Positions 4,082-62,866 of a stretch of DNA of 64,000 nt are shown here, piece by piece. Each line of letters starts with the position of its first letter. The first letter of the stretch is position 1. This stretch comes from an uncultured Ruminococcus sp. (GTDB lineage: Bacteria > Bacillota > Clostridia > Oscillospirales > CAG-272), in contig CAZBQN010000006.1 in the NCBI GenBank assembly GCA_964494135.1, positions 2,806 through 66,805 on the forward strand, in the 5' to 3' direction. A model generated the notes under the pieces. It searched no databases. It was not told the DNA's origin and saw only the letters and a program-made list of their open reading frames with translations. Made by a program: the position numbers and the translations under genes.

Positions 4082-4260
4082 AACGTTGTCTCCTCTTGAT
4101 TTATATGGGAAAGGTCGGAGAATCGGGATTGAGTAAAAGCACCTGCTCACAGAGCTTATTCAGAAAATCCGCAACACGCCTTTCCCTTTTTTGCAAGGTA
4201 TGTATATATTATACAACAAATTTAAGAAAAACAATAGTTTTTAAAAAATATTTTGTACGT

Positions 4261-21289: not shown

Positions 21290-21376
21290 ATACGCTGAAA
21301 AAATATGAATTGAAATCTTTTCGCATTGCCGACGGCTCTTTTTTCGGCAGACATAGAGATTTCAGAAAGGAAGAAA

Positions 21377-43043: not shown

Positions 43044-44858
43044 TCAGCTTCCCGCAGATAGGGAAGTGAATTTTTCCAGTGCCGATACGAAGTCGGAGAA
43101 TGCGCTCTTTTCAAAGGGAGAGTCAAGCCCGACCTTTTCCAAAAGCTCCTGATAGCTGTCCGTATTTCTTTCAAGAAGGGCGGCAAATATATTTGCACCT
43201 GCGCCGGTTTCTGCCTGTTCAAGCTCAAGCACGCGGACGGCGCCGAGTGCCGAGGTTACGTACGCCTCGTTGGTCAGGGGCGCGGTAATGCTTTTTTCCG
43301 AAATTACGCCGTCTAGGGTGATTTCTGCTTCGTACAGCTCCATGCCGAGAATTCTTGCAAGCTCCTCAAGACGTTCTTCTGTGATCTCGTAGTACTCCAG
43401 CTTATAGACCTCGTGCTCGTAAAGCGAATACCTGACAGACGCTTCAAGCTCAGCGAGCATATTGTATACCGTCAGCAGCTTAGTATAGCCGAAGGCGGAA
43501 GCCGAGAGCTTCTTATCAAGCTTGGTCAAGCAGAGAAGCTCTGAGGTAAGCGAATAAAGCTCGGAAATTCCCTGAAAGTCTGCGAAACCGTAGTTGACAT
43601 ATCCGTCAAGGAAGCTGCCGAACAGGAAAGAAATTTTTTCGTAGTCGTATATGTTATCGCGGACCGTTACGAAAATAACCGGCGAGTTGTTTGCACTTAT
43701 GTACTCTGCGAATCCTGCGGTGTGTCTGACGTCCGCACTTTCCTTAATGTCGTACAGTCCGTGCTGGAGCATATAAGCGAAGGCATCGCCGAACTCCGGA
43801 TTCATCTGACTGTATACACTGTACATATCGTTGACGGTGACCTCGTAATCCTGCTTGGGAATACTCTGTCCGATAAGAGCCTGTTCGATCTTTTCCGCCA
43901 GAACATCAAGAGAGCCAAGCGCAGACTTTGCGTTTTGCAAAAGAGTATTCATCTGCGCCTCTGTGTAATCACAGCCCAAATTTTTATAGGCAACCTCAAT
44001 GTAGCTTGAACAGCCAAGCTCGTCCGCTATTTGGCGGCGCACCTTAACCAGCTCGGTGAATACGGCTCTGCGCTTTGCATTTATTGCATCGTTGTAAAGC
44101 GCGGTATAAATTGCTTTGTTGCTCAGATATTTGTTCGAGCCTTCACCGTATTTTTCGGCAAGCTCTGCCAGCATTTCTGTCAGCGTGCCGGTAGAATCGC
44201 CGTAGGTAATTTCCACGTTGTCGGGGGATAAATGACGGTATTCGGACAGAATCTCTGCCTCCTGTCTGTAAAGCTCTTTCAGAGTGTCGGTTACCGTGTA
44301 ATCAAGATATTGATCAAGGCTGTATCCGAATAGTTCTTCTTCAAGAGCCGCTTTGTACACCGATTTTGCACAAGCCGAGAGAAGCTCGCGGTTTGCAAGT
44401 GTCAGGTCAATCAGATATTCCGAGAAATATATCTCTTCTTCCTTCCAAAACTCAACCGACGAGTCTCTTGCCGCGCTGATCCTTACCAGCGACAGCATCA
44501 TTTCGGCTTCTTCGCATTTTTTAAAGAGCGATGTAAGTGACGAAACCGTTTCGGATAAATCAAGCTCTGAGCTTGAAATTTTTTCGCTCAGCGCGAGGAC
44601 GTTTTCGGATAAGGTCCTGAGGTTCGGTCTTGTGTATACCAGCTCCGACAGGTCGGCAGTTCCTCTGCCGTAGTCCTTATAGTCGGGTGTAATGATTGAA
44701 GTGCCGTCGTCTATCGGGGGCGGATTGTTACCGTTACCGCCTCCGTTATCATCATCTGTGATGTCTTCCGAGCCGCTGTCCGGCGTACATCCGATAAGAC
44801 TAAGCATGCTCGTAAAGATTAAACATATAATGAGAAATAAAGGTATGATCCTTTTCAA
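43044..44858 (-). CDS. Lipoprotein resembling M3B oligoendopeptidase (PepF-like) but without the HExxH zinc motif
   Basis: TTG at 44858 lies 5 nt downstream of GGAGG and gives MKRIIPLFLIICLIFTSMLSLIGC, a textbook lipoprotein signal. The region RRQIADELGCSSYIEVAYKNLGCDYTEAQ resembles M3B peptidases. No HExxH occurs anywhere in the ORF. Confidence 0.6.
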   Translation of the reverse strand: MKRIIPLFLIICLIFTSMLSLIGCTPDSGSEDITDDDNGGGNGNNPPPIDDGTSIITPDYKDYGRGTADLSELVYTRPNLRTLSENVLALSEKISSSELDLSETVSSLTSLFKKCEEAEMMLSLVRISAARDSSVEFWKEEEIYFSEYLIDLTLANRELLSACAKSVYKAALEEELFGYSLDQYLDYTVTDTLKELYRQEAEILSEYRHLSPDNVEITYGDSTGTLTEMLAELAEKYGEGSNKYLSNKAIYTALYNDAINAKRRAVFTELVKVRRQIADELGCSSYIEVAYKNLGCDYTEAQMNTLLQNAKSALGSLDVLAEKIEQALIGQSIPKQDYEVTVNDMYSVYSQMNPEFGDAFAYMLQHGLYDIKESADVRHTAGFAEYISANNSPVIFVTVRDNIYDYEKISFLFGSFLDGYVNYGFADFQGISELYSLTSELLCLTKLDKKLSASAFGYTKLLTVYNMLAELEASVRYSLYEHEVYKLEYYEITEERLEELARILGMELYEAEITLDGVISEKSITAPLTNEAYVTSALGAVRVLELEQAETGAGANIFAALLERNTDSYQELLEKVGLDSPFEKSAFSDFVSALEKFTSLSAGS

Positions 44859-44871
44859 TACTACCTCCGGA

Positions 44872-45834
44872 TTATCTGCCAAGACCTGCGGCACCGATGA
44901 TACCCGCATCGTTGCCCAGTGAGGCTGTGACTATTTTAGTCTTGTTCTTGCCGTCACGGGTGTATTGCTCTCTGTCAACCATTTCGATAAGGGGACGGGT
45001 CAGATACTCTTTCTCATTACAAACACCGCCGCCTATGCAGAGCACGTGAGGCTGGAAAATATTTATCATGTTCGTAATTCCGACTGCCAGATATCCGATA
45101 TATTCGTCAACTATCTCCTTGCCGTAGCGGTCGCCATTTTTCATCGCGTTGAAGGACGTACGGGCAGTAACCTTACCGTCACGCGCCTCCTCGTCAAAGA
45201 GCATGGAGGGGATACCTTTAAGCTTGAGCTCGTTCATCTTCTCCTTCGTCATAGCAGTGAGGGCAGTTGCCGATGAGTATGCCTCCCAGCAGCCGCGTCT
45301 TCCGCAGGAGCACTGTCTTCCTCCGCAATCAATGACTGTGTGTCCCAGCTCCGCGCCCGCACAGTTCACACCGCCCGCAAAAATTTTACCGTCGATTATA
45401 ACACCGCCGCCGACACCTGTGCCGAGGGTTATCATAACGAGAGAGGGATAGTCCTTTCCCACGCCCGCAAGAGCCTCGCCGAGAGCTGCGGCGTTGGCGT
45501 CGTTTGCAATATATACTTCTTTCGCGGGATAGTATTTTTTGAACAGCGAGGAAAGAGGAAAGTTAACCATTTTGATATTATTTGAGTATTCGACGGTACC
45601 CGTGCCGGAATTTACCGTTCCGGGAGATGCAATTCCGACGTACTCAATGTCCCCGGGAGTCAGTCCGTTGCGCTCGGTAATGTCCATAGCCAAGGCTGCC
45701 ATATCCTTTACTATCAGCTCTGCATCCCTGCTTGCCAGAGTGGGAACCGAGCCCTTGTCTACAATTTCAAGCTTTTCGTTACAAAGACCTATGGCGATAT
45801 TCGTTCCGCCGAGGTCGATACCTAATGTGAACAT
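44872..45834 (-). CDS. glcK: ROK-family glucokinase
   Basis: GIDLGGTN start, the ROK zinc motif CGRRGCWEAY (C-x2-G-x2-GC-x-E) and GIIGAA at the C-terminus. ATG at 45834 follows AAAGGTGAG. Confidence 0.85.
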   Translation of the reverse strand: MFTLGIDLGGTNIAIGLCNEKLEIVDKGSVPTLASRDAELIVKDMAALAMDITERNGLTPGDIEYVGIASPGTVNSGTGTVEYSNNIKMVNFPLSSLFKKYYPAKEVYIANDANAAALGEALAGVGKDYPSLVMITLGTGVGGGVIIDGKIFAGGVNCAGAELGHTVIDCGGRQCSCGRRGCWEAYSSATALTAMTKEKMNELKLKGIPSMLFDEEARDGKVTARTSFNAMKNGDRYGKEIVDEYIGYLAVGITNMINIFQPHVLCIGGGVCNEKEYLTRPLIEMVDREQYTRDGKNKTKIVTASLGNDAGIIGAAGLGR

Positions 45835-49358: not shown

Positions 49359-49387
49359 TTGACAATTTAAATACAATGTGGTATAAT
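49359..49387 (+). promoter_or_regulatory. Consensus promoter of the 13-kb ABC/secreted-protein operon
   Basis: TTGACA (49359-49364), 17-nt spacer ending in TGG (extended -10), TATAAT (49382-49387). Confidence 0.7.
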
Positions 49388-49409
49388 TTGTGCGTATATA
49401 AAAGTTCTG

Positions 49410-49479
49410 CCTTTTGACGATGGTATCAACCTGAGGTCTCAACACGAGCATAGGCATCAGGCTGATATTATCGTCAAGG
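49410..49479 (+). other. Long 5'-UTR stem-loop
   Basis: CCTTTTGACGATGGTATCAACCTGA pairs with TCAGGCTGATATTATCGTCAAGG. That is about 21 bp with one mismatch and a few G-U pairs, and a 22-nt loop. It ends 70 nt before the start codon. Confidence 0.6.
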
Positions 49480-49549
49480 TCAATCCGTAAGCTTAGGCGT
49501 TGCGGTGACGTTGCAGTCTTGATACAGAAAAAAATCGGAGGATTCAGAA

Positions 49550-52500
49550 ATGAAGAACACACTGTTTCGGAAAGTCGTTTGTTTTGTGCTTTCCGTGACT
49601 ATGCTGGTCGGTATGTTCGGCGTAAGTGCATCTGCTGCATCCCTCAAAACGGAGCCTGAGGAAAACCCTTACAGCGCTTCCACGCTTGAGGAAATGACGG
49701 CGCTGGTAGGCACACCTACGTACGAGGAATACCTTGCCGGCTGCAAGGAAATCGAAACCGGAAACGTTCCGCTTGACAGCATTAACATTGACGTGCTGTC
49801 TTTCCACGGGGACGCGGTCAAGGTTTCAGACAGTGATCTTTGTAGGGGCGCTATGGGCTCTGATGAGGAGAACTGGATTAACTTCGGCGACAATGCCGAC
49901 AGCAGCGTATATCTCTCTGCACTTGAGGATAAATCGCTCGGAGCTCCTACGTGGTATTTCAACGTCAGTGAAAACCAAGTCGGATACTATTTCATAAAAA
50001 TAGAGTATTTCAGCTGCATCACGGCTGAGAGCAGCATTTCTTCAATTGAGAAAGGCTTCAAGCTTGACGGCAGTCTCGTTTTCAAGGAAATAGCAACCGT
50101 TGACATGGACAAGAATTGGACTTATTGGTCGGAGGACAGCTTCCGCACGGAGACCGCCCCGGCAACGTCCGAGGATGAGGAAGGCGTTCATATCAGCTAT
50201 CACGATGAAGTCATTGACGGCAAAACCTACTACATAAAAGAGGTCGTAACCGTCAAGGACGGAACTAAGACCGTCGAGAAATATATGCTTTCTCAGGATA
50301 TCAACGGAAATACGATGGCGCCCAACTCCCACGCCGTACCCGCGTGGAGCACCAAATATCTTCAGGATTCGTCCGGATACTACAACGGATACTTTAAGTT
50401 CTATCTTTCCGAGGGCGATCATTCCATCTCACTTGCTGCTGAGCGTGAGCCTGTGATTGTCAAATCCATAGAGCTTGTTCCGGCAGAGGAGGATAATGCG
50501 CTTCCTTCTTACGAGAGCGTACTTGAAGAGTGGAAGTCTCTCGGATACAAGCCCGCTGCCAACGGACAGATCGTTGAGATTCAGGCTGAGTTCCCCGACA
50601 TGGTTTCCGACTCGTCGGTTGCTCCCACCAACGACAACTCCTCTCCCAACAACTCGCCTATTTCTCCCGCTGCGCAGGTGTATAACATCATTGGCGAGAA
50701 CGGATACAGCGCGGTAGGTCAGTGGGCAGCGTACAAATTCACCGTCAGCGAGTCCGGCATGTACAATCTCGGTATGAGATTCAAACAGAATACCCTTCAG
50801 GGTATGTTCGTCTGCCGTGCCATAAAGCTTTCGGGCGGTCAGTATGGTCTTGCGGACGGCACGCCGTCGGCACCCTTTGCTGAGGCATACAATGTCGAAT
50901 TCGGCTACAGCGATTCATGGCAGTCCACGTTTTTGGGATTGCGCGATCAGAATCCTTTCCTCTTCTACTTTGAGGAAGGCGTGGAATATACTCTCTACCT
51001 TGAATGCTCGCTCGGTACTTTGAAGGAGTATATTCAGCGCGTTGAGGCGAGCCTTGATGTCATCAACTCTTGCTACCTTAAAATACTTAAGCTGACGGGC
51101 AGCGACCCTGATGAGAATTATGATTACAAGTTCATTTCCACCATGCCCGACGTCGTTATTTCTCTGCTCGAGCAGGCACAGGAGCTTATGGACGTCAAGA
51201 ACGGCTTGCAGGCTCTGTGCGGAACGAACGGTTCGCATATTGCAACGCTTGAAACCGTAGCTACCCTTCTTCTTACCATGGGTAAGGATAAGGGCGATAA
51301 GATAGCGGAGAATATGTCTACTCTCAAATCCTACCTTGGTACTCTCGGTACTTGGATAAACAATTCCAAGACCAGCAAGATAAGCGTTGACTCAATATGG
51401 GTAGTTCCCGCAACAGGCGACAGCATTGACAATGCTCAGCCCGATTACTCAAAATTGCCCGAAGCAAACGCCAACTTCTTCCAGGCCATGTGGTTCGAGA
51501 TTCAGTCATTCTTCTTCTCGTTCTTCGTTGAATATGACCAGATGGGTCTTACGGTCGTACCGGATGCGGATACTCCTCAGATAGACGTCTGGCTTGCAAC
51601 AGGCCGTGACCAGTCTCAGATCTGGCGTACTATGATCGACGCTCACGGCGGATTTACCGAGAGCACCGGTACCGCTGTCGTTCTTAAGCTGGTTACCGGC
51701 GGAACGCTTCTGCCCTCTATACTTTCCGGTAAGGGTCCCGACGTTTATATGGGCCTTGGCTCTGCCGACGTCATAAACTACGCGATACGTGATGCCGTTG
51801 TCGGTATCAGCGGAAACGCGCCCTTAAAGGACGGATGGACTGAGGAGGATAATGCAGTCTTCGCCAACACGTATTATACTTATGTAGACGACGGTAAATA
51901 CGTTAACACCACCGAGAAGAGAGAGGGGCAGGAGGCAACCTTCGTCTCTTATACGGTAGAACAGCTCGTTGCCGACGGCAACTTCGCAGATGCGGCAATG
52001 GATACCGTAACGCTGCTTGATGTTTCTTACGGTATTCCTCAGACGATGGGCTTCTCAATGATGTTCTACCGCATGGACGTTCTTGCCGAGCTGGGACAGG
52101 AGGTTCCGGAATCATGGGATCACCTGTTGTCCATTCTTCCCGTTCTCCAGTCAAATAATATGTCTATCGGTGTCTCCTACCTTTCCGCTCTTGACTTCAT
52201 GATTTATCAGAAGGGCGGCAGTATGTGGAAATATACCGATTCCTCGATATACGACAGCAGATACGCTGGCGCAGAGATTGACCTTGATTCTCCGATAGCT
52301 CTTGAGGCGTTTGAGTTTACATGCCGACTTTACACCGACTACTCGTTCCCCGTATCCTACGATGCGGCAAACCGTTTCAGAACCGGTGAGATGCCTATTA
52401 TAATCGGTGATTATGCCGGCATTTACAACCAGCTTACGGTATATGCAACAGAGCTTGACGGTCTGTGGGAGTTCTGCTCCTTGCCCGGCTCCTTCAGAAC

Positions 52501-52999
52501 CGAGGCTGACGGCACTCAGACCTTCAATTACGATTCGCTTGCAGGTATTTCCGCTACCGTAATACTTCACGGATGCGACAATCTTCTTGCGGCATGGCAG
52601 TTCACACAGTGGCAGACCGGTGCCGATGCTCAGTCTGAGTACGGTAACAGAATGGTTGCCCTTATCGGCCCTTCCGCTAAATACGAGACTGCGAACCTCA
52701 AGGCTATTGAGAACCTGTCCTGGACTGCGAAGGAGAAGGCTGCCATTATGAACCAGATGGACCACCTTTCTTCCATAGTAAACTATCCCGGTTCTTACAT
52801 TTATTCAAGATATATGCAGTTCGCATTTTACGATGTTGTAAACGAATCTGCACGTCCCAACGACGCTATGATGAGCTACATAGATGCCATCAACAGTGAA
52901 ATTACGCGTAAGCGCGCGGAATTCAAGGATTTCGATCTTTGGTACATAGGCAAACCCGACGATGTGGAAGAGCCTGTTCCGAAGTCGAACGCAAAGTAA
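49550..52999 (+). CDS. Giant secreted ABC solute-binding protein: about 645-aa N-terminal extension with two CBM-like modules plus a C-terminal family-1-like sugar SBP domain
   Basis: Signal peptide MKNTLFRKVVCFVLSVTMLVGMFGVSASA with no lipobox. From about aa 677 the sequence shows SBP-like blocks (IDVWLATG, GKGPDVYMG, FYRMDVLAELGQEVPESWDHLL, RFRTGEMPIIIGDY). GGAGGA SD. Confidence 0.75.
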   Translation: MKNTLFRKVVCFVLSVTMLVGMFGVSASAASLKTEPEENPYSASTLEEMTALVGTPTYEEYLAGCKEIETGNVPLDSINIDVLSFHGDAVKVSDSDLCRGAMGSDEENWINFGDNADSSVYLSALEDKSLGAPTWYFNVSENQVGYYFIKIEYFSCITAESSISSIEKGFKLDGSLVFKEIATVDMDKNWTYWSEDSFRTETAPATSEDEEGVHISYHDEVIDGKTYYIKEVVTVKDGTKTVEKYMLSQDINGNTMAPNSHAVPAWSTKYLQDSSGYYNGYFKFYLSEGDHSISLAAEREPVIVKSIELVPAEEDNALPSYESVLEEWKSLGYKPAANGQIVEIQAEFPDMVSDSSVAPTNDNSSPNNSPISPAAQVYNIIGENGYSAVGQWAAYKFTVSESGMYNLGMRFKQNTLQGMFVCRAIKLSGGQYGLADGTPSAPFAEAYNVEFGYSDSWQSTFLGLRDQNPFLFYFEEGVEYTLYLECSLGTLKEYIQRVEASLDVINSCYLKILKLTGSDPDENYDYKFISTMPDVVISLLEQAQELMDVKNGLQALCGTNGSHIATLETVATLLLTMGKDKGDKIAENMSTLKSYLGTLGTWINNSKTSKISVDSIWVVPATGDSIDNAQPDYSKLPEANANFFQAMWFEIQSFFFSFFVEYDQMGLTVVPDADTPQIDVWLATGRDQSQIWRTMIDAHGGFTESTGTAVVLKLVTGGTLLPSILSGKGPDVYMGLGSADVINYAIRDAVVGISGNAPLKDGWTEEDNAVFANTYYTYVDDGKYVNTTEKREGQEATFVSYTVEQLVADGNFADAAMDTVTLLDVSYGIPQTMGFSMMFYRMDVLAELGQEVPESWDHLLSILPVLQSNNMSIGVSYLSALDFMIYQKGGSMWKYTDSSIYDSRYAGAEIDLDSPIALEAFEFTCRLYTDYSFPVSYDAANRFRTGEMPIIIGDYAGIYNQLTVYATELDGLWEFCSLPGSFRTEADGTQTFNYDSLAGISATVILHGCDNLLAAWQFTQWQTGADAQSEYGNRMVALIGPSAKYETANLKAIENLSWTAKEKAAIMNQMDHLSSIVNYPGSYIYSRYMQFAFYDVVNESARPNDAMMSYIDAINSEITRKRAEFKDFDLWYIGKPDDVEEPVPKSNAK

Positions 53000-53023
53000 G
53001 ACTTTCGAGTAAAGGAGATAAAA

Positions 53024-53974
53024 ATGTCACAGACAAACTCAGAGACATCACGTCCGGTCAAGCGCTCGGAAGTGTCAAAGCTGCGTTGGACCTGGCAGGA
53101 GATGCTGAACAATAAGACGGCGTACTTTATGCTGTTCCCGTTCCTTATTTTGTTCATCATATTCACTGTCCTTCCCGTTTTGCTTTCCATGTTCCTCAGT
53201 CTTACCGACTTTAATATGCTTCAGATGCCTACGTGGCGCGGTATTGATAACTTTATGCGTCTGTTCCTTGAAGACGAGATATTTATGCTCGCCTGCCAGA
53301 ACACTCTGGTATTCGCCGCAGTCACAGGTCCCGTATCCTACATACTCGCTCTTCTTGTCGCGTGGTTCATTAACGAGCTTCCTCCCAAGATCCGCGCGGT
53401 TGTAACGCTCGTATTCTACGCACCTTCTATTTCCGGTCAGGCTTACCTTATCTGGAAGACGCTGTTCTCCTCAGACTCTTACGGCTGGGTTAACGCGACG
53501 TTGATAAAATACGGTTTTATATCCGAGCCGATACTGTGGTTCCAGGATGCTGACTACGTTATGGGTCTTTGTATCGTAGTCGCACTGTGGACCTCTCTCG
53601 GTACGGCGTTCCTGTCATTCATCGCAGGCTTCCAGACGATAGACCGTTCTATGTACGAGGCTGCGGCGGTTGACGGAATCAAGAACCGTTGGCAGGAGCT
53701 GTGGTATATCACCCTTCCCACCATGCGCCCTCAGCTGATGTTCGGTGCCGTGCTTTCAATCACTAACTCATTCGGCTTCGGTGCGGTCGTTGACGCGCTG
53801 TGCGGATTCCCGTCTGTCGATTACGCGGCGCATACGATAATGCACCACCTGAACGACTACGGCGGTCAGCGATACGAGGTCGGTTACGCTTCAGCTATTG
53901 CAGTAGTGCTCTTCGTCATAATGTTCTCCTGTAACATTCTGATTAAGAAAGCTCTGTCGAAGGTAGGTGAGTAA
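53024..53974 (+). CDS. CUT1-type sugar ABC permease (MalF-like)
   Basis: Six TM helices and an EAA loop YEAAAVDGIKNRWQELWYITLP. Confidence 0.88.
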   Translation: MSQTNSETSRPVKRSEVSKLRWTWQEMLNNKTAYFMLFPFLILFIIFTVLPVLLSMFLSLTDFNMLQMPTWRGIDNFMRLFLEDEIFMLACQNTLVFAAVTGPVSYILALLVAWFINELPPKIRAVVTLVFYAPSISGQAYLIWKTLFSSDSYGWVNATLIKYGFISEPILWFQDADYVMGLCIVVALWTSLGTAFLSFIAGFQTIDRSMYEAAAVDGIKNRWQELWYITLPTMRPQLMFGAVLSITNSFGFGAVVDALCGFPSVDYAAHTIMHHLNDYGGQRYEVGYASAIAVVLFVIMFSCNILIKKALSKVGE

Positions 53975-53976
53975 GC

Positions 53977-54852
53977 ATGTCGAAGAAATTAAGAACAAGA
54001 GGACATAAGGTCGTCCTGAACCGTTCCGCAGGCGGTGATACCGGTATCACCATCATGCTTACGATCCTCGGACTGTTTATGTTCCTTCCCATGTACTACG
54101 TTATTATTCAGTCGCTGAAGCCGCTGGATGAGCTGTTCATGTTCCCCCCTCGATTTTACGTAATGCAGCCTACTCTCCAAAACTTCGGAGATCTGTTTAC
54201 GTTGATGGGCGATTCTTGGGTTCCTTTCTCAAGATACATTTTCAACACGGTGTTCATCACCATTTGCGGTACTCTCGGTAACCTTATATTCGCGTCCATG
54301 GCGGCGTACGCGCTTGCCAAGCTGAGATTCCCCGGCAGAAATGCGATATTCCAGATTATCGTCATGTCGCTGATGTTCCACTCTACGGTTAACCAGGTAA
54401 CGCACTTCATCATTTTGTCTGCGTTCGGTTGGATTGATACATATCTTGCTATCATCGTTCCCTCAATGGCTACCACTATGGGTCTTTACCTTATGAAGCA
54501 GTTCATGGAGACTTCGGTACCCGATACCGTCCTTGAGTCTGCAAGACTTGACGGTGCAAGCGAATTCAGGACATACCTGACGATAGCGATGCCCATGGTT
54601 AAGCCTGCATGGCTGACGCTGATGATTGAGTGCTTCAAGTCGCTGTGGAACACCGGTTCCTCAATATATATTCACTCCGAGGAGCTCAAAACCTTCAACT
54701 ACGCAATTCAACAGATTCTTTCAGGCGGTATTGCCCGTTCGGGTGCCGGCGCTGCGTCGACGGTCGTTATGATGATGGTTCCCATTATCGTATTCGTACT
54801 TAACCAGAGCCAGATCATCGAGACGATGGGCTCCTCCGGTATGAAGGATTAA
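53977..54852 (+). CDS. CUT1-type sugar ABC permease (MalG-like)
   Basis: EAA loop ESARLDGASEFRTYLTIAMP. Starts 2 nt after the upstream stop. Confidence 0.88.
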   Translation: MSKKLRTRGHKVVLNRSAGGDTGITIMLTILGLFMFLPMYYVIIQSLKPLDELFMFPPRFYVMQPTLQNFGDLFTLMGDSWVPFSRYIFNTVFITICGTLGNLIFASMAAYALAKLRFPGRNAIFQIIVMSLMFHSTVNQVTHFIILSAFGWIDTYLAIIVPSMATTMGLYLMKQFMETSVPDTVLESARLDGASEFRTYLTIAMPMVKPAWLTLMIECFKSLWNTGSSIYIHSEELKTFNYAIQQILSGGIARSGAGAASTVVMMMVPIIVFVLNQSQIIETMGSSGMKD

Positions 54853-54862
54853 GGAGGTAAGA

Positions 54863-57070
54863 ATGAAAAGCAAAATATTCAAAATCCTGTTGCTTTCTCT
54901 CGTGCTGGTAATGATATTCGGTACGGTTTCTGCCTCCGCATTCGTTCCATACGATACCTACACTTATTCAATAGACGGTGACGCCCTTATGTCGCCTCCG
55001 GCATATATGGTTACAGACCCCATAAACTACAAGGAAATGGGTTTAACCGTGAACCCCGGAGATAAGGCAATCAATTTTGCCGACATAATCACCGACTATC
55101 AAGGTAACGTCTATCTCTCGGATAAAGGTAACAACAGAATTTACATTCTTAATAAGTACTACAAGCTTATCAAGACGATTGACGGCTATTATGACGAGGG
55201 TAACGTGTATCAGACCTTCGCTTCAACCGAGGGTATGTATATCAGCAACCCCGAGAAAAACGCCGTCGGTGTTGAAAACTACTTGTACGTGTGCGACAAA
55301 ACCAACAAGAACATAGTTGTTTTCGATCCCGATAATGATTACGAATGTGTTAATATTATCAAGTGTCCCGTAGAGGAGGGAAGTTCCGACGGTCTTCTCA
55401 CCTACGACGAATTTGCCCCCATGGCAGTTGCGGTAGATATTTACGGAAGAGTATTCGTGGTATCCGAGAACTGTAACAAGGGTATCATCGTGCTTGCAAG
55501 CAACGGTGAATTCACCGGATTTATCGGCGCACAAAAGGTTGCTGTTAATTTCTTCGAGGAACTCTGGAAGAACTTCCAGACGGATGAGCAGAAGAAGTCC
55601 AACGTTCAGGCGACGACGTATCCTTTCAATAACATCACGATAGACTACGACGGCTTCGTATACGCCACCACGGACAAGGTTCCCGAGGCTCAGCAGATGT
55701 CTTCAATTAAGTCGAAAAGCTCCAAATATTCTCCTGTAAAGAAGCTTAACTCTACGGGAGTTGAGATTATGAAGCGTAACGGCTTCTTTGATCCCGGCGG
55801 AGAGGTAGATATCTTCAAGTCTGACGAGGTATCTAAGATTACGGACATCGCACTCGGGCGTGACGGAACGTGGACTATTCTCGACGTAAACAGATCGCGC
55901 CTTTATACCTACGACAGCAGCGGAAATCTGTTGTTCGCTTTCGGTGATACCAACACCACCGTTCACTCGGCTCTGGGTTGCGGTACCGTGTTCTCAGGAA
56001 TAGCGTATCAGGTTGTCGACGGAGTTTACTACCTGCTGGTGCTTAACAACAATACGTCCAAGAACGGCTACGAGCTGAACGTATATATCCCCACATCGTA
56101 CTGTGACGACCTTATGACCGCTCTCGGCAACGAGAATGCTCATAACTACGAGCAGGCGATACTTGACTGGCAGAAGGTCCTGACGCAGAACAACAACTTC
56201 GACCTTGCATATATCGGTATCGGTAAAGCTCTCTTTAATCAGGGTAAATACGCGGAAGCTTATGAAGTGCTCCAGAACGCGTATGAGACCGAGTATGCAT
56301 CAAAGGCTTACGGTGAGATAAGAAAAGACATCATCAACAACTGGATCTTCCTTATTCTCGCTGTGGTTATCGTACTCGTTGTGCTTCTTTTCAAGTTCCT
56401 CGGCTATGCCAAGAAGAAAAATAAGGCAACCTCCCTTAAGGTCGGAAGGAAGACGTACGTGGAAGAGCTTTTGTACGTATTCCACCTTATATTCCATCCC
56501 TTCGACGGCTTCTGGGATTTGAAGCACGAGAAGCGCGGTTCCGTAAGAGCGGCTACTACGATACTCGTCATTACGATGCTCGCCTTCCTGTATCAGTCTG
56601 TCGGTCAGGGTTATCTCTTTAACCCCAGAGGCGACTATTCGATGGCGTTTATGTCGATGCTTGCGGTACTCCTTCCCGTAATGCTCTTCGCGATTGCAAA
56701 CTGGTGCTTGACCACCCTGTTTGACGGTGAGGGAAGCTTCAAGGATATCTACATCGCGCTTTGCTATTCGCTGGCACCCTTGCCGCCTTTCGTAATCGTA
56801 GCAACCATTCTCTCCAACGTATTTACGACTTCCGAGGCGTCAATGGTAAGCATGATTACCACGATCGCATTTATCTGGACGGCAATTCTTATCTTCTTCG
56901 GAATGGTTGTAACTCACGACTACTCCATCGGTAAGAATATACTCACCATTCTGGGAACCGTTCTTGCAATTATAATTATAATATTTATCGCTGTTCTGTT
57001 CTCGACACTCGTTATGAAGATGGTAACCTTTGTTCTTTCCATCTTTACAGAGTTGGCGAACCGAGCATAA
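54863..57070 (+). CDS. Signal peptide, NHL-type beta-propeller, TPR and C-terminal Yip1-like five-TM domain fused in one protein
   Basis: NHL-like blades (GNVYLSDKGNNRIYILN, YLYVCDKTNKNIVVFD, GRVFVVSENCNKGIIVL, GTWTILDVNRSRLYTYD), a TPR-like segment (YEQAILDWQKVL...GKALFNQGKYAEAYEVL), then a TM helix and a Yip1-like block (HPFDGFWDLK...) with 5 TM helices. Confidence 0.7.
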   Translation: MKSKIFKILLLSLVLVMIFGTVSASAFVPYDTYTYSIDGDALMSPPAYMVTDPINYKEMGLTVNPGDKAINFADIITDYQGNVYLSDKGNNRIYILNKYYKLIKTIDGYYDEGNVYQTFASTEGMYISNPEKNAVGVENYLYVCDKTNKNIVVFDPDNDYECVNIIKCPVEEGSSDGLLTYDEFAPMAVAVDIYGRVFVVSENCNKGIIVLASNGEFTGFIGAQKVAVNFFEELWKNFQTDEQKKSNVQATTYPFNNITIDYDGFVYATTDKVPEAQQMSSIKSKSSKYSPVKKLNSTGVEIMKRNGFFDPGGEVDIFKSDEVSKITDIALGRDGTWTILDVNRSRLYTYDSSGNLLFAFGDTNTTVHSALGCGTVFSGIAYQVVDGVYYLLVLNNNTSKNGYELNVYIPTSYCDDLMTALGNENAHNYEQAILDWQKVLTQNNNFDLAYIGIGKALFNQGKYAEAYEVLQNAYETEYASKAYGEIRKDIINNWIFLILAVVIVLVVLLFKFLGYAKKKNKATSLKVGRKTYVEELLYVFHLIFHPFDGFWDLKHEKRGSVRAATTILVITMLAFLYQSVGQGYLFNPRGDYSMAFMSMLAVLLPVMLFAIANWCLTTLFDGEGSFKDIYIALCYSLAPLPPFVIVATILSNVFTTSEASMVSMITTIAFIWTAILIFFGMVVTHDYSIGKNILTILGTVLAIIIIIFIAVLFSTLVMKMVTFVLSIFTELANRA

Positions 57071-57085
57071 AAGGAGGAGATAAAA

Positions 57086-60000
57086 ATGAAGAAAAACAGA
57101 ATAATATCATCTCTCCTTGCGGTTTTGATGCTTCTTACGATGGTTCTTACACTGATCCCCGTCAATGCGTTTGCGGCTCATTCTCCGTCATCTGTGACGT
57201 CGGATGCAAAGACTGCGGAAGAAATTGCCGCTATTGTAAACGGTATGAGCTCGTACAAGTACTCCTCGGCAGATAAGGCTCTTGCCGCCGAACTGAGCGC
57301 AGGTTATCTTGATTACGTTTCTTCCGCGGCAGGAGAGTACACTCTTTACGTTAACAGATATACGGGCGTTCTGTACTACAAGAACAACAAAACCGGTGAG
57401 ATTCTCACCAGTAACCCCTATGATTTATCCGGTGTAAACGGTGTGGAAAATATGAACCGCCTCACCAGCCAGATATATATCGAATACACCGAGATCACCA
57501 GCGGTAAAACATCTGCCTTGTTCAGCTCAAAGGATGCTGCCGCAAGAGCGCAGATAAAGCTGTCCCGCATAGACGGCGGTATTCGCGTAAGCTATACGCT
57601 GGGTGATACCTCAAGAAGAGTTCTTCTTCCCGCAATAATGACGGCAGAGGTTTTCGAGGAGAAAATCTTCCGTCCTACCATCGAATACTACGAGAGCTTG
57701 GTTTATGAACACTTCTCCGAAGAATTCTGGGAGACCATGCCGTGGTACAAAAAGTTCGTTTCCTTCTATTCAACCGATAACATATACGACTTGGATCACA
57801 GAGAGAATCATCCTACCTTTGTACGCGAAGGAGTTTTGAACGAGTCTGCCATTTCAAGCTATTTCAGCAATAACGCAAAGATATTTGAAAGCTTGAACGG
57901 TGATCCGAGTATTTCGGCTGAGAATAAGGATTACTGTGTTGAACTGATGAATCTGGCAAATGATATCAAAGCGAATTTGTTTGCTATGTACTATTGCTAT
58001 GATCCGGAAAATCCCCCGGAGAACACGGATGTTAAGGATATGTACAACAGCATCCCCGAAACCGAGAGCGGTCAGGCATTCTATGTATTCGGCAACGTTG
58101 GTATCAAGCCCTCCGAGACAGACTTCAAGAAGGCGTCCAATATGCTTTCCGAGTGCTGCCCCGAATATACCTTTGAGGATATGTACGAGGACGAAGCGGC
58201 GTCCAGCAAGCCTCCTTACACCCTTGAAGAGACCAATCCCGTATTCAGATGCTCTCTTGAATACACGTTTAACTCAGACGGTTCTCTGTCTGTAAGGCTT
58301 CCTGCAAATTCCATTACCTTTGACGAGACTGTTTACAATCTTGACTCCATATCTCCCTTGCAGTTCTTCGGAAGCGGTTATCTTAACGATTACGGCTACG
58401 CTTTTGTTCCCGACGGCTCGGGCTCGATAATAGAGTTTGAAGAATTCTACACCCCCGGTGTAAACCGTGAGCAGATAACCGTAAGACTTTATCTGACTAC
58501 CTACGGTCTTGATTATTGCTACTCTTACCTTGACAGTATGGCTACCAGACCCTACGAGCAGGTTACAATGCCGGTCTTCGGACTTGTTTCAACACAAAAG
58601 GCACCTACGGCTATATCCAACGTAACGGGCAAGGATACCATGCAGACCGGATTCTTTGCAGTGCTTGAAGAAGGTTCCGCTCTTGCCAAGATCTACGCCG
58701 ACTTCGGCGGCAGTATGTACAACATCGGCGGCGCATACGCAAGCTTCAATCCTTACCCCTCCGATACGTTTACTTACGACGACGGAAACGAGTTTGACAT
58801 CGTATCCAAATCCAAGTATACCGGATCCTACGTTACGAGATACGTAATGCTTTCCGACCCTGATTATACCGCTACGGTTCAGGATGGTTACGAGGCAACC
58901 TACGTTGGTATGGCAAGCTACTACCGCGAGTATCTTAAGGAAACCGGCGTTCTTGAGCCGCTCAGGAATTTGAACGAGCAGCTGCCTCTCTATATTGAAG
59001 CTTTGGGTTCAATGGAAAAGGTTGAGCAGATTGCTACGTTCCCCGTAACGTTTGATGTTCCTCTTACAACCTTTGATGACGTAATTACAATGTACAAGGA
59101 CTTGGCGCAGGTCAAGCAAGTGCTGACTGAAAAGGCTAAGGAATACGAAGATAAGAGCCTTATGCCAGGTGATGCAAACGACGTTGAGGCACAGAAGTAT
59201 TATGCTCTTGCCGAAAAGGTCATCAATATGAATAACGTCAACTTCAAGCTGACCGGTTTTGCAAATAACGGTATGTATTACACTTATCCCGTTAAGCTTG
59301 ATTGGGAATCAGCATGCGGAGGCAGAGACGGCTTCATCAATCTTATAAGCACGGCGAAGCAGATTAGCGAGGGCGAGGGCAACTTTGGCGTATTCCCCGA
59401 GTTCGATTTCATGTATATCAATAACACCGCTTTGTTTGATGGTATCGACAATAAAGATAACGTTTCTAAGATGGTTGATGACAGATACGGCTCCAAGAAG
59501 GTATATAACCCCGTCAGCTCGGAGTTTGAGACCTTTTACGCCATGATAATCAGCCCCGATGTGCTTGATAAGCATTACAGCACCTTCTTTAACAAGTATT
59601 CCGAATACAACATCGGTTCTATTTCGGTTTCCACGCTTGGCTCAGACCTCAACTCCAACTTTGACAGAGATAACTCAATCAACAGAGATGAGGCTCGCGT
59701 TTACGTTGAAAATCTTCTTGACAGAATTGCGGGCGATTACGACGTAATGATTTCTACCGGAAACATTTACGCTCTTGCATACGCAGACCACGTCCTTGAC
59801 ATCTGCATTGACAGCACCCACTTCAACGTATCCTCTTATCCTATTCCTTTCACTGGTCTCGTTCTTCATAGCTACGTTAACTATACCGGCTCGGCAATGA
59901 ACTATTCGGGCTCTCCCGACTACGACCTGCTTCTTTCCATCGAGAACGGAGCGTCGCTGTATTACATTCTTTGCTACCAGAACGAAGAGCTTATGAAAGA

Positions 60001-60781
60001 TGATGAAAGTCTTAATAAGTACTACGGCGTTAAATACGATACGTGGCTTGAATCCATTGCGTCGTCTTATACGAAGCTCAACTGGGCTATCGGAGATCTT
60101 CAGACCTTTGAAATCGTCAATCATGCTCATCTTATAGCAGAGCGTGACATTGAAGACGAGGAATGGGTCAATAATACCAAGGCGCTTCTCAACGAGTTCG
60201 TTTCCCTGGTTGATACGGCAATTCAGAACGCGGTAAACGCGGCGTATGAAGAAATGTTTGAGAACCCTGCGGAAATCGGCAGAGCGGTAAAAGTGATAGT
60301 TGACGTAGACGCACTTATTGCTCAGGCAATTTCCGAGATTAACGTTTCCGATGTCATCTATGGCGAAGTTATAGATGAAGAATCGCTCAGCAGGTATGAA
60401 ATAGAACTCCGTGAGTTCTGGAACAGCTTTGTAAGCACGCTTAACGATACGGTAAATAAATATACCGATTACTATACCGGTGCAAACGATGCCGATCCTT
60501 ACGTTGTAAATGTAGGCAGAATAGAGTACCGCAGCGCTTACAAGTACGTAACCGATTCCAAGGCTACCGATTCGGATTACAAGACTACCGTCTACACGGT
60601 AGACAACAACAAGGTAACTATGATCACTTACAGAAACAGCGAGACAGGCGAAGAGGTAAGCTTCGTGCTTAACTACAACATTTACTCGGTAAAAGTTTCT
60701 CTTGCCGACGGCGAGAGCTTCATACTTCCCAAGTACGGTTTCGTAAGAATTGATGAGGAGGGAACACACTTCTATGGATAA
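57086..60781 (+). CDS. 1231-aa secreted protein of unknown function (DUF5696-like or glycosidase-like core suspected)
   Basis: Signal peptide ending VNAFAAHS and no other TM helix or sortase motif. Central blocks (YAFVPDGSGSIIEF, MPVFGL, GFFAVLEEGSALAKIYA, FKLTGFANNGMYYTYP, STLGSDLNSNF) recall a family I remember as DUF5696. GGAGGAG SD. Confidence 0.6.
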   Translation: MKKNRIISSLLAVLMLLTMVLTLIPVNAFAAHSPSSVTSDAKTAEEIAAIVNGMSSYKYSSADKALAAELSAGYLDYVSSAAGEYTLYVNRYTGVLYYKNNKTGEILTSNPYDLSGVNGVENMNRLTSQIYIEYTEITSGKTSALFSSKDAAARAQIKLSRIDGGIRVSYTLGDTSRRVLLPAIMTAEVFEEKIFRPTIEYYESLVYEHFSEEFWETMPWYKKFVSFYSTDNIYDLDHRENHPTFVREGVLNESAISSYFSNNAKIFESLNGDPSISAENKDYCVELMNLANDIKANLFAMYYCYDPENPPENTDVKDMYNSIPETESGQAFYVFGNVGIKPSETDFKKASNMLSECCPEYTFEDMYEDEAASSKPPYTLEETNPVFRCSLEYTFNSDGSLSVRLPANSITFDETVYNLDSISPLQFFGSGYLNDYGYAFVPDGSGSIIEFEEFYTPGVNREQITVRLYLTTYGLDYCYSYLDSMATRPYEQVTMPVFGLVSTQKAPTAISNVTGKDTMQTGFFAVLEEGSALAKIYADFGGSMYNIGGAYASFNPYPSDTFTYDDGNEFDIVSKSKYTGSYVTRYVMLSDPDYTATVQDGYEATYVGMASYYREYLKETGVLEPLRNLNEQLPLYIEALGSMEKVEQIATFPVTFDVPLTTFDDVITMYKDLAQVKQVLTEKAKEYEDKSLMPGDANDVEAQKYYALAEKVINMNNVNFKLTGFANNGMYYTYPVKLDWESACGGRDGFINLISTAKQISEGEGNFGVFPEFDFMYINNTALFDGIDNKDNVSKMVDDRYGSKKVYNPVSSEFETFYAMIISPDVLDKHYSTFFNKYSEYNIGSISVSTLGSDLNSNFDRDNSINRDEARVYVENLLDRIAGDYDVMISTGNIYALAYADHVLDICIDSTHFNVSSYPIPFTGLVLHSYVNYTGSAMNYSGSPDYDLLLSIENGASLYYILCYQNEELMKDDESLNKYYGVKYDTWLESIASSYTKLNWAIGDLQTFEIVNHAHLIAERDIEDEEWVNNTKALLNEFVSLVDTAIQNAVNAAYEEMFENPAEIGRAVKVIVDVDALIAQAISEINVSDVIYGEVIDEESLSRYEIELREFWNSFVSTLNDTVNKYTDYYTGANDADPYVVNVGRIEYRSAYKYVTDSKATDSDYKTTVYTVDNNKVTMITYRNSETGEEVSFVLNYNIYSVKVSLADGESFILPKYGFVRIDEEGTHFYG

Positions 60782-61700
60782 GCCATTAAAAATCAAAAAG
60801 CGTAGGGTTTCCCTCGACGCCAGAAAGGCGAGGGCAGGCTACTTCTTCGTAGCCCCCTTCGTCATCGGACTTATACTTGTATACTTCCCCATACTCTTTG
60901 ATTCAATTCTGTCAAGCTTTTTCAGATTGGATTACAGCGCGAGTGATACGGGTGTAAACGTTTTCGTAGGATTTGAATATTACAGTGAAGCACTTTTCGG
61001 AAGCACAAAATTTATTGACAGCCTTAGCGCGGGACTTCAGCAGATGGTGCTTGAGGTTCCTACGATAATCATTTTCTCTCTGTTTATCGCGGTTGTCCTT
61101 AACCAGAAAATGCTCGGCAGAGCGGTGTTCAGAGCAATATTCTTCGTTCCCGTTATTATATCCACGGGACTTATGGTAACCATTAACGCACAGGATATTG
61201 CTTCGGATTCTATGGCGGGCGGTGTTGACGACGGTTCGGGCGGCGGAATGCTCGACGTTAACTTCGTTGAGGATTTGTTCAGAAATATGGCAATCGGCGG
61301 CGATATGGTCGAGGTTGTCGTAAAGCTGGTAAACCAGATATTTGATATTATCAACTATTCAGGTGTACAGATGCTGATATTCCTTGCGGGCTTGCAGTCG
61401 ATTTCCGAGTCGATTTACGAGGCGTGCCGTATCGACGGTGCGACCGGCTGGGAGACCTTCTGGAAGGTTACGTTCCCCATGATTTCCCCCATGATTCTCG
61501 TTAATGCGATTTATACGGTAATAGACTCGTTTACCAGAAGCGATAACAAGACGATGAACTTTATATCTGTTACCTGCGTCGGTGAGCCCGAGGCGGTAAG
61601 AGCCGCGATGTATTGGATATACTTCCTTGTCGTTATCCTGATACTGGCAGCTGTGGCGGGTATTATATCAACCTTTGTATTCTATCAGAAAAAGGATTAA
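60774..61700 (+). CDS. Second MalF-like CUT1 ABC permease
   Basis: EAA loop YEACRIDGATGWETFWKVTFP. The ATG overlaps the upstream stop (ATGGATAA). An ATG at 60753 is an alternative start. Confidence 0.85.
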   Translation: MDKPLKIKKRRVSLDARKARAGYFFVAPFVIGLILVYFPILFDSILSSFFRLDYSASDTGVNVFVGFEYYSEALFGSTKFIDSLSAGLQQMVLEVPTIIIFSLFIAVVLNQKMLGRAVFRAIFFVPVIISTGLMVTINAQDIASDSMAGGVDDGSGGGMLDVNFVEDLFRNMAIGGDMVEVVVKLVNQIFDIINYSGVQMLIFLAGLQSISESIYEACRIDGATGWETFWKVTFPMISPMILVNAIYTVIDSFTRSDNKTMNFISVTCVGEPEAVRAAMYWIYFLVVILILAAVAGIISTFVFYQKKD

Positions 61701-61715
61701 GGGAGGAGGAAAAGC

Positions 61716-62789
61716 ATGGATTCTACTAACAATGCGGGAACGCAGGTTAAAAAAGAAACGAAAAACAAAATTCGTGTTGATTACGAAGGTAAGCTCTCCC
61801 TTAAGGATAGAATAAAGGCGAAGTTCAAATCATCGTATACATGGATCAGAATAGTCGTCAATATCTTCAGATTTGTTTTGATGGTAGGCGTTTCCTTCGT
61901 TATCATATATCCTTTCATTGCGAGAATTACCGCGTCCTTTATGTCCTTTGAGGACATTCTGGACAAGACGGTTTCGCTGATTCCCAAAAATCCTACGCTG
62001 GAGATATACGAGGCACTTATCGTTGACAACAGATACTTTGAGGCGTTTGCCAATACGTTATTGCTTTCTCTGAGCTGTGCTTTGATACAGATGCTGGTAT
62101 CCTGCCTTGTAGGATACGGACTTGCGAAGTTCAAATTCAAGGGCAATAAGCTGATAATGGCGCTTGTTGTCGTTACTATGATAGTTCCTCACAGTGCTCT
62201 GCGCTTCGCAATGGCTGATAACTTCGGTCAGTTCGACTTCTTCAGAATTCTGACGTTTGATACCGTGGGTCTCATAGAGCTGATAACCGGTTCTCCCATC
62301 AATATGTCAAACACCTACGCTCCCTTGATTATTCTTTCTCTCGGCGGACTTGCATTTAAGAACGGACTTTATATCTACCTTATGCGTCAGTTCTTCAAAG
62401 GCGTTCCCGATGAGCTTGAGGAGTCTGCGTACGTTGACGGTTCGGGTACAATCCGCACCTTCTTCCAGATCATTTTGCCCCTTGCCGTGCCGATGATGAT
62501 TACGGTATTCCTGTTCTCCTTCTCATGGCAGTGGACCGATGATTTCTACACCAAGATATTCTTCGTCGCAGGTGACGGAAGCCCGAATAAGATATATCTT
62601 ATGCCGGACGTATACAGCGTTGTTACTACACGTCTTAATCTTCCCTCCGGAACAACGGGTAAGGCGATGTACGATAACGTTATTCAGAACACCGGCGGTA
62701 TGTTGATTATCGCGCCCCTTATCATTCTTTACCTGTTCTGCCAGAAGTTCCTGGTACAGGGTATCGAGCGTTCGGGTATCACAGGTTAA
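61716..62789 (+). CDS. Second MalG-like CUT1 ABC permease with an N-terminal extension of about 40 aa
   Basis: EAA loop ESAYVDGSGTIRTFFQIILP. GGGAGGAGG SD. Confidence 0.85.
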   Translation: MDSTNNAGTQVKKETKNKIRVDYEGKLSLKDRIKAKFKSSYTWIRIVVNIFRFVLMVGVSFVIIYPFIARITASFMSFEDILDKTVSLIPKNPTLEIYEALIVDNRYFEAFANTLLLSLSCALIQMLVSCLVGYGLAKFKFKGNKLIMALVVVTMIVPHSALRFAMADNFGQFDFFRILTFDTVGLIELITGSPINMSNTYAPLIILSLGGLAFKNGLYIYLMRQFFKGVPDELEESAYVDGSGTIRTFFQIILPLAVPMMITVFLFSFSWQWTDDFYTKIFFVAGDGSPNKIYLMPDVYSVVTTRLNLPSGTTGKAMYDNVIQNTGGMLIIAPLIILYLFCQKFLVQGIERSGITG

Positions 62790-62825
62790 TATCGGATTTA
62801 CCTTACATTTCAGCACAGAGCTGCA

Positions 62826-62866
62826 GTGGCTGTCGCAAAATCTTGCGACAGCCACAATTTTATTTC
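62826..62866 (+). terminator. Intrinsic terminator of the operon, overlapping the stop of the convergent gene
   Basis: GTGGCTGTCGCAA-AATC-TTGCGACAGCCAC, a perfect 13-bp stem, followed by AATTTTATTT. Confidence 0.75.

Follow-up and report, generated by a model that had tools for sequence, protein, structure and literature searches.

The 64-kb window analysed here (64,000 nucleotides of contig CAZBQN010000006.1, from an uncultured Ruminococcus sp. of the class Clostridia) contains a seven-gene operon, g1 to g7, whose components are strictly co-inherited across two classes of Bacillota, as judged from gene content and order. In brief, g1 encodes a giant MalE-fold binding protein, g2 and g3 a first pair of ATP-binding cassette (ABC) permeases, g4 a membrane protein combining a putative beta-propeller with a Yip1 domain, g5 a large DUF5696 protein, and g6 and g7 a second pair of permeases. 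We suggest that its products form a carbohydrate uptake system of several components, namely two CUT1-type importers and the co-inherited extracytoplasmic proteins g1, g4 and g5, and give this reading a probability of about 0.6. From the context of the cassette in relatives, we infer that sugars are transported inward. Any physical association of the proteins, the feeder of the second permease pair, catalysis by g5 and the substrate are likewise points that we infer.

The seven genes are co-directional, occupy positions 49550-62789 of the plus strand and are bracketed by a promoter and a terminator. The open reading frame (ORF) and signal scans agree here with a first-pass annotation of the same DNA, which had described seven plus-strand genes with a promoter, a terminator, gene spacings of -8 to 24 nt and a Shine-Dalgarno sequence at each gene. 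The features are as follows.

49359-49387, plus strand: sigma-70-type promoter, TTGACA, 17-nt spacer with TG extension, TATAAT (12/12 consensus)
49550-52999, plus strand: g1, ORF of 1149 aa
53024-53974, plus strand: g2, ORF of 316 aa
53977-54852, plus strand: g3, ORF of 291 aa
54863-57070, plus strand: g4, ORF of 735 aa
57086-60781, plus strand: g5, ORF of 1231 aa
60774-61700, plus strand: g6, ORF of 308 aa from the ATG at 60774
61716-62789, plus strand: g7, ORF of 357 aa
62826-62866, plus strand: intrinsic terminator, stem 62826-62855 of 13 bp (8 GC pairs), 4-nt loop, T-rich tail

The intergenic distances from g1 to g7 are 24, 2, 10, 15, -8 and 15 nt, and a GGAGG-type Shine-Dalgarno sequence is found at each of the seven starts. 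An alternative start for g6, the TTG at 60750, appears in the mechanical ORF list. The ATG at 60774 has GAGGAGGG just upstream and was taken as the start, giving the 8-nt overlap with g5. Together g1, g4 and g5 account for 71% of the operon residues, and not for approximately 60% of the coding capacity as had been stated earlier.

The window proteins were compared by tblastn with 84 related loci from the source clade, 65 of them on contigs long enough to span g1 to g7. The seven genes were found in the same order and orientation on all 65 contigs, usually after iscS-nifU-mnmA. Since this order is retained throughout, we regard the cassette as a vertically inherited core feature of the clade. 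Relatives of g5 were detected 510 times; the 120 listed are all full-length (approximately 1160-1240 aa), and the few with a source name come from uncultured Clostridia. A g5 relative is encoded in 169 species-representative genomes. The 80 loci that were fetched come from gut or rumen metagenome-assembled genomes (MAGs) labelled Clostridia, Eubacteriales, Oscillospiraceae or 'Ruminococcus', except one labelled Coriobacteriaceae.

The genes of the operon differ strongly in conservation. Within the clade, the median identity to the window protein is 89.7% for g3, the highest in the operon, and 84.5% for g2, followed by g7 (63.3%), g6 (60.6%), g1 (55.6%), g4 (55.5%) and g5 (41.8%). As a baseline, the corresponding values are 85% for NifU, 77% for a neighbouring unrelated ABC permease, 73% for IscS and 50% for MnmA. 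By this comparison the constraint on the first permease pair equals that on NifU, the iron-sulfur scaffold protein. The view that g2 and g3 are unusually well conserved is tempered by the values for NifU and the unrelated permease.

Two observations on individual loci should be mentioned. The locus labelled 'Coriobacteriaceae bacterium' (CAVEOF010000005.1), and thus assigned to the Actinomycetota, harbors the full cassette, and its proteins are as similar to those of the window as are those of the Clostridia MAGs. The label is probably a binning or labelling error and does not point to lateral transfer. On the Logan contig SRR6824180_6699, g1 is 100% identical to that of the window, and the next gene is called as 290 aa starting approximately 100 nt after g1, compared to 316 aa after 24 nt in the window; this is probably a difference in gene calling.

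Outside the clade we analysed eight distant loci, two found by tblastn against annotated plasmids and six among relatives of the Butyrivibrio protein. The seven-gene order is kept in all eight, which come from Butyrivibrio, other Lachnospiraceae, Paenibacillus and Cohnella. Both of the DUF5696 genes found on annotated plasmids lie in this order. Plasmid pNP243 of Butyrivibrio fibrisolvens encodes a histidine kinase, a response regulator, a glycoside hydrolase (GH) of family GH43, a binding protein of 977 aa, two permeases, an NHL protein, a YIP1 protein, a DUF5696 protein, two permeases and two further binding proteins. The Paenibacillus cellulosilyticus plasmid encodes a ugpC ATPase, a binding protein of 986 aa, two permeases, a fused YIP1 protein of 719 aa, a DUF5696 protein and two permeases. 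The remaining six loci with the core are an Acetatifactor-like contig, three other metagenomic contigs, Paenibacillus alkalitolerans and Cohnella nanjingensis. The surroundings of the distant cassettes vary and include GH43, GH113, GH26, GH16 with GH3, GH35 with GH42, or GH2, regulators of the LacI, AraC or two-component type, and one or two extra binding proteins of normal size (455-542 aa).

The reciprocal best match of each window protein in the distant loci is its positional counterpart. Identities to these counterparts are 41-57% for g2 and 34-59% for g3, 35-42% for g6 and 27-41% for g7, and 28-32% for g1 and 23-27% for g5. For g4 they are 35-40% in the Yip1 part and 27-30% in the propeller part, and 24% over the full length of the fused orthologue of P. 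cellulosilyticus. The evolutionary rates are thus uneven within one operon, and the ranking against Bacilli is the same as within the clade (up to 57-59% for g2 and g3, 23-27% for g5). Co-occurrence of the seven genes is far beyond chance. The first-pass annotation had placed binding protein, permease, Yip1 and DUF5696 genes adjacent to each other in other Firmicutes and had proposed a comparison of neighbourhoods across Clostridia and Paenibacillus genomes. This comparison confirms the adjacency and extends it to the whole seven-gene order, in 65/65 clade and 8/8 distant loci and from Clostridia to Paenibacillaceae.

A published locus of the same architecture is found in Caldicellulosiruptor. 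A reconstruction of the carbohydrate regulons of Caldicellulosiruptor bescii describes a xylan degradation locus with the operon xloEFG-X-GH129-axoFGE-xynF.... In brief, Athe_0174 encodes the binding protein XloE, Athe_0175 and Athe_0176 permeases, Athe_0177 an NHL repeat protein, Athe_0178 a 'GH129' protein, Athe_0179 and Athe_0180 permeases, and Athe_0181 the binding protein AxoE. Athe_0174-0181 are co-transcribed and all are induced on xylan. The authors predicted two CUT1 transporters, XloEFG and AxoFGE, with msmK encoded separately and highly expressed, and binding of XynR to the operator of the locus was shown in vitro. The orthologues in C. saccharolyticus (Csac_2419-2412) respond to xylan-rich biomass. 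These papers neither analyse the NHL and GH129 genes nor note a conserved unit.

The Caldicellulosiruptor locus shares with the window operon the succession of a binding protein, two permeases, an NHL protein, a GH129-like protein and two permeases, and the location of the ATPase elsewhere. Its own features, which the window operon does not have, are the terminal second binding protein AxoE, the downstream GH43 and GH10 xylanases and repression by XynR and AraR. The window operon, on the other hand, combines a promoter that looks constitutive with a structured leader, and it encodes a fused NHL-TPR-Yip1 protein and a DUF5696 protein that is approximately 380 aa longer. The clade version as a whole is distinct: it combines the constitutive-looking promoter and the structured leader RNA with enlarged and fused proteins, and has neither a second binding protein nor carbohydrate-active enzymes (CAZymes) or a regulator. 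The system was earlier thought to be undescribed. This does not hold for the architecture, which has been published as two predicted CUT1 transporters plus an NHL and a 'GH129' protein, and does hold for the NHL/Yip1 and DUF5696 proteins, which are uncharacterised. As a conserved seven-component unit the cassette is uncharacterised too, as are the roles of its two accessory proteins; its kind, CUT1 importers in glycan utilisation loci, is known.

The g1 protein is predicted to be secreted and has an N-terminal signal peptide. Its AlphaFold2 model comprises two beta-sandwiches (residues ~80-311 and ~340-485), a helical bundle (~491-606) and a two-lobed MalE-type binding domain (~677-1123). In Foldseek searches this C-terminal domain matched maltose, trehalose and oligosaccharide binding proteins, among them MalE, TMBP and GltA, with E-values of ~1e-9 and TM-scores of 0.6-0.67. 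Against PDB sequences, g1 gave a weak match to YcjN (1.4e-5). No Pfam family matched g1, even at E = 10; for some of its homologues precomputed matches to SBP_bac_1/8 exist, and its orthologues in the distant cassettes are binding proteins of 964-986 aa. The earlier assignment of g1 as a substrate-binding protein is therefore upheld by its fold and the YcjN match, and not by Pfam. That the N-terminal beta-sandwiches bind carbohydrate is a guess based on their fold and on a faint Golvesin_C match in one orthologue. Anchoring of g1 as a lipoprotein was rejected by eye; Cys11 precedes the hydrophobic core and there is no lipobox. Processing at an ASA-type signal-peptidase I site appears more likely.

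Both permease pairs have the marks of CUT1 importers. In the first, g2 is MalF/UgpA-like (BPD_transp_1 4.6e-9, UgpA 1e-15) with the EAA motif EAAAVDG...ITLP, and g3 is MalG/UgpE-like (BPD_transp_1 1e-9, UgpE 1.3e-23) with an EAA loop. In the second, g6 is MalF-like (BPD_transp_1 1.8e-9) with the EAA motif EACRIDG...VTFP, and g7 is MalG-like (BPD_transp_1 6.3e-11, UgpE 5e-16), again with an EAA loop. All four exceed the Pfam gathering score for BPD_transp_1 and carry the EAA-x3-G-x9-I-x-LP motif. What similarity there is between the pairs lies in the EAA region (27-36% identity); a recent duplication was rejected on this ground, and the doubling of the pairs is ancient. The membrane module had been called duplicated, which is correct in that two MalF/MalG-like pairs are present. 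It is not a recent copy, and in other taxa the second pair is usually accompanied by a binding protein of its own.

The g4 protein has, in order, a signal peptide, a putative extracytoplasmic NHL/SGL-type beta-propeller (residues ~30-420), a TPR region (~425-490), a transmembrane helix (495-513), a positively charged cytoplasmic linker and a Yip1 domain (541-718). The match to Yip1 (PF04893) has an E-value of 2.5e-16 and 60.5 bits, compared to a cut-off of 28.6, and aligns residues 541-710 with positions 2-172 of the 173-position model. The hydropathy plot shows five hydrophobic segments in this domain, which we read as five transmembrane helices. An NHL/TPR/Yip1 composition had been proposed for g4. 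Yip1 is clear, and TPR matches are present in Pfam and NCBIfam; NHL is weak in g4 itself (NCBIfam ScyF-NHL 1.5e-5, Pfam NHL 0.15) and is backed by the orthologues, which are annotated as NHL or SGL or have weak matches to these families. Other taxa usually encode the two parts of g4 separately, as an NHL protein of ~490 aa and a Yip1 protein of ~206 aa; a fused form of 719 aa also occurs in P. cellulosilyticus.

The g5 protein is predicted to be secreted or anchored and matches DUF5696 with an E-value of 7e-112. Compared to the ~850-aa DUF5696 forms found elsewhere, it carries three insertions, one of ~100 residues in the N-terminal region, one that forms a coiled coil and one of ~150 residues close to the C-terminus. 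The AlphaFold2 model shows a beta-sandwich (~350-555) and an alternating beta/alpha region (~680-985), a putative barrel in which the predicted local distance difference test (pLDDT) values are the lowest of the model. In Foldseek searches with this model TM-scores were low; the top match, and the only strong one, was the GH129 enzyme NagBb (5wzp, E 3.7e-8), followed by GH31, GH66, GH97 and GH13. A profile of the whole DUF5696 family matched, over partial regions, the PDB sequences of NagBb (1.4e-5 / 6.1e-5) and of the GH129-like 3,6-anhydro-D-galactosidase 5opq (4e-4). The aligned regions are the N-terminal strand, the final part of the beta-sandwich and the initial strands of the barrel; the alignment ends before the catalytic strands of NagBb. 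Neither the single g5 sequence nor a clade-only profile matched any PDB sequence, and among Pfam matches up to E 10 g5 gave only DUF5696 and not GH129. From the fold match and the family-wide profile match we nevertheless consider DUF5696 a remote homologue within the GH129 superfamily. Three acidic residues, D443, D476 and E953, are invariant across the DUF5696 family; the motif PEFDF is invariant in the clade and is not conserved outside it. The family is large, with 4574 representatives of 50% identity clusters at E <=1e-3 and 1970 at E <=1e-30. A literature search gave no mention of DUF5696 or PF18952, and no relevant paper came up for Yip1 together with ABC transporters or glycoside hydrolases.

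The g5 protein is best compared with GH129, that is, with the alpha-N-acetylgalactosaminidase NagBb of Bifidobacterium bifidum (5wzp) and with 5opq. This is the best structural match, yet identity is ~10%, and g5 is twice as long with extra domains; the substrate is not transferable. The transport part is compared with CUT1 importers such as MalEFGK2 and the AraNPQ/MsmX-type system of Bacillus subtilis, with which it shares the MalE-fold binding domain and the heterodimeric BPD_transp_1 permeases with EAA loops. It differs from these in a binding protein 2.5 times as large as usual, with three additional domains at the N-terminus, in two permease pairs per unit, in two obligatory accessory proteins and in four divergent permeases, with Pfam E-values of only ~1e-9 to 1e-11.

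CUT1 importers of Firmicutes commonly use an orphan multitask ATPase of the MsmX type. In the window, ABC ATPase domains are found only in three fused exporter-type proteins (21326-23131, 23131-25059 and 40988-42931). The first-pass annotation had noted that no nucleotide-binding subunit is encoded in the window; this is correct for the MsmK/UgpC type and incorrect for ABC ATPase domains in general. It had further noted that LacI, AraC and two-component regulators are absent, and we found none among the scanned ORFs of at least 150 aa, nearly all of which were scanned. The implied anomaly is not borne out by the relatives. A cassette without its own ATPase and regulator is ordinary for such systems, because ugpC lies directly upstream in P. 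cellulosilyticus, msmK is separate in C. bescii, and cultured taxa encode regulators beside the cassette.

In 34 of 36 mnmA-g1 intergenic regions of diverged relatives, the equivalent position holds a single promoter that matches the consensus at 11/12 positions or more and has the TG extension and a spacer of 17 nt. It is kept in sequence and spacing although the MnmA proteins of these genomes are only ~50% identical. We take this as a sign that the clade expresses the cassette strongly and probably constitutively; here the cassette looks like a core system rather than an inducible accessory locus. The promoter is followed by a 5' leader of ~160 nt (49388-49549), with a folding z-score of -3.7, that contains one further feature.

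49416-49475, plus strand: leader hairpin, interrupted 20-bp stem, apical loop ACGAGCAYAG

The hairpin recurs in 12-14 of the closest relatives, with compensatory changes in 10 of its 20 pairs, and 96.7% of the cells pair. Such covariation was reached by 0 of 500 shuffles, and slid controls gave at most 4 such pairs. More distant relatives have short and different leaders. Neither the leader nor the whole window matched an Rfam family. With no U-tract downstream, the hairpin was rejected as an intrinsic terminator or attenuator; it could stabilise the mRNA or bind a protein.

We suggest the following mechanism for the uptake system, in which we favour a physical complex of the proteins. The g1 protein would capture a glycan and dock on the first, extremely conserved permease pair. 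At the cell surface g5 would bind or trim the captured glycan and process it or hand it over to the second pair, and g4 would most likely be a scaffold that holds the assembly at the membrane. The products would enter via both permease pairs, g2/g3 and g6/g7, each presumably powered by a shared MsmK/MsmX-type ATPase from elsewhere in the genome. We favour glycan uptake because of the catabolic neighbours, CAZymes and regulators, of the cassettes in cultured relatives. A conserved capture and uptake system for a complex glycan had also been the leading proposal of the first-pass annotation, and both the conserved unit and the genes beside it in other taxa fit that role.

Several observations weigh against this reading. 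No canonical CAZyme and no regulator is found in or beside the window operon, so a role in the use of dietary glycans is extrapolated from distant relatives. Among these, the CAZymes beside the cassette differ by taxon and point to mannan, xylan/arabinan, beta-glucan or galactan. Either the cassettes have diverged in their specificity, or their conserved core is not tied to a particular substrate. The likeness to Caldicellulosiruptor is drawn from published annotation and gene order. Neither the 64-kb window nor the 10-kb surroundings of the 84 clade loci contained an ATPase of the MalK/MsmK/UgpC type, the best matches being generic ATPase domains with 22-29% identity. The g1 and g5 proteins have cleavable-looking signal peptides and no obvious anchor, and their structure models are only moderately confident (pLDDT 65 and 73, respectively). 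A profile restricted to the barrel, built to align the catalytic residues, reached E 0.68 and halts before the catalytic strands. Finally, residue N858 of g5 (motif LNSNF, ~59657-59659) is Asn in 32/32 aligned clade members and Asp, in the motif S/A-D-Y/F, in 18/18 aligned relatives from Lachnospiraceae and Paenibacillaceae. This replacement may mean that catalysis by g5 is altered or lost.

This last point bears on the question whether g5 of this clade is no longer an enzyme and, as a catalytically dead GH129-like lectin or scaffold, passes glycans on to the second permease pair. The substitution at N858 would fit, as would the order DUF5696-permease-permease, which mirrors that of binding protein-permease-permease, the clade operon without a second binding protein, and a core that stays constant while the flanking CAZymes vary. 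However, the Asp equivalent to N858 may not be catalytic, D443, D476 and E953 are invariant family-wide, and the clade has its own invariant acidic motif in PEFDF. We regard a dead g5 as possible and lean against it. A more far-reaching version, which we offer as tentative and rather expect to fail, is that all seven proteins form one obligate cell-surface supercomplex, a Gram-positive counterpart of Sus. In such a complex g4 and g5 would couple the two importers to g1, and a long glycan would be bound, processed and imported without release. The core would be substrate-agnostic, and the clade g5 would be a non-catalytic hand-over module that has replaced the second binding protein. The opposite and simpler view, that two ordinary and independent CUT1 importers share an operon with two unrelated surface proteins, without complex or coupling, agrees with the C. 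bescii literature, where XloEFG and AxoFGE are treated as separate predicted transporters. It also agrees with the distant relationship of the two permease pairs and with the majority of the distant loci, where a second binding protein of normal size, inside the cassette or next to it, makes one per pair possible. We consider it unlikely, since the order of all seven genes is retained in 65/65 clade and 8/8 distant loci, in Clostridia and Bacilli, while the surroundings change. Moreover, the clade has one binding protein in the operon for two pairs, and the tight or overlapping junctions suggest translational coupling.

Two further explanations concern the function of the whole. The clade cassette might serve a housekeeping function of the envelope, for example by salvaging or turning over glycans from the wall or capsule of the cell itself, and not foraging on dietary or host glycans. 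The surroundings of the cassette in the clade would suit this, with a fixed position after iscS-nifU-mnmA, a conserved near-consensus promoter, no regulator nearby and no adjacent CAZymes; so would a g5 relative in every locus examined and g2 and g3 as conserved as NifU (84.5-89.7% versus 85%). All sampled cassettes of cultured taxa, however, sit in inducible plant-polysaccharide loci, nothing in the window links the cassette to wall synthesis, and the structured leader could itself regulate, so that we judge a housekeeping role improbable. Export or secretion of a glycan or protein had been raised earlier as an alternative, and we give it hardly any credence. The large secreted proteins encoded in the operon, the role of eukaryotic Yip1-family proteins in vesicle traffic and the association of B. 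subtilis YknW with an ABC exporter could be taken in its favour. Against it stand four BPD_transp_1 type-I importer subunits with intact EAA loops next to a MalE-fold binding protein, the catabolic context in other taxa, which indicates import, and the lack of any glycosyltransferase or polymerase gene nearby.

In B. subtilis YknWXYZ, the Yip1-family membrane protein YknW accompanies, and probably assembles with, an ABC transporter; YknXYZ itself is an exporter of the MacB type that includes a membrane-fusion protein. The cassette differs in that the Yip1 domain bears a large, putative extracellular propeller and is encoded with type-I importers. Sus-like systems of Bacteroidota are a functional analogy; their conserved module joins a transporter to two surface proteins, one glycan-binding and one glycosidase-like, and is combined with variable CAZymes. 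Their proteins are unrelated to those of the cassette and their envelope is different, and the cassette has no TonB-dependent transporter. Among the polysaccharide utilisation loci of Gram-positive gut Firmicutes (gpPULs), the Lachnospiraceae and Paenibacillaceae cassettes can be included by definition, as they consist of a transport core beside CAZymes and a regulator. The window locus, a transporter without CAZyme or regulator, falls outside the definition.

ABC importers are the main route by which plant and host glycans enter Gram-positive bacteria of gut and soil, and the usual picture is one binding protein, two permeases and a shared ATPase. To this the cassette adds a second importer and two proteins of uncharacterised role. 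It is puzzling that the NHL/Yip1 and GH129-like proteins are never parted from the two importers while the nearby enzymes, and presumably the substrates, change. If the accessory proteins do couple processing at the surface to transport, models of glycan foraging in Firmicutes would change and the large DUF5696 family would gain a function. C. bescii and Paenibacillus are genetically tractable and have the same architecture in inducible loci, which makes the question directly testable.

The operon is flanked by mnmA on one side and a branched-chain-type permease on the other, and its terminator lies between g7 and a convergent gene ending at 62860. A second 12/12 promoter is found on the minus strand (49120-49091) inside the AT-rich mnmA-g1 intergenic region (665 nt, 33% GC). 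It faces leftwards, toward the mnmA terminator, and could give rise to a short antisense or small RNA. It was rejected as a conserved feature; among 35 related intergenic regions only that of the closest relative (L004) has it. The rest of the window is of housekeeping character, with ilv/leu genes, PolC, ispG and iscS-nifU-mnmA, and this content assigns the window to the chromosome of a Firmicute. Five ORFs had no Pfam match at the thresholds used: 43044-44909 (minus strand, 621 aa), 20428-21147 (minus strand, 239 aa), 25842-26546 (plus strand, 234 aa), 3521-4150 (minus strand, 209 aa) and 5739-6350 (minus strand, 203 aa). The ORF of 621 aa adjoins a gene for a ROK-family kinase, upstream of iscS.

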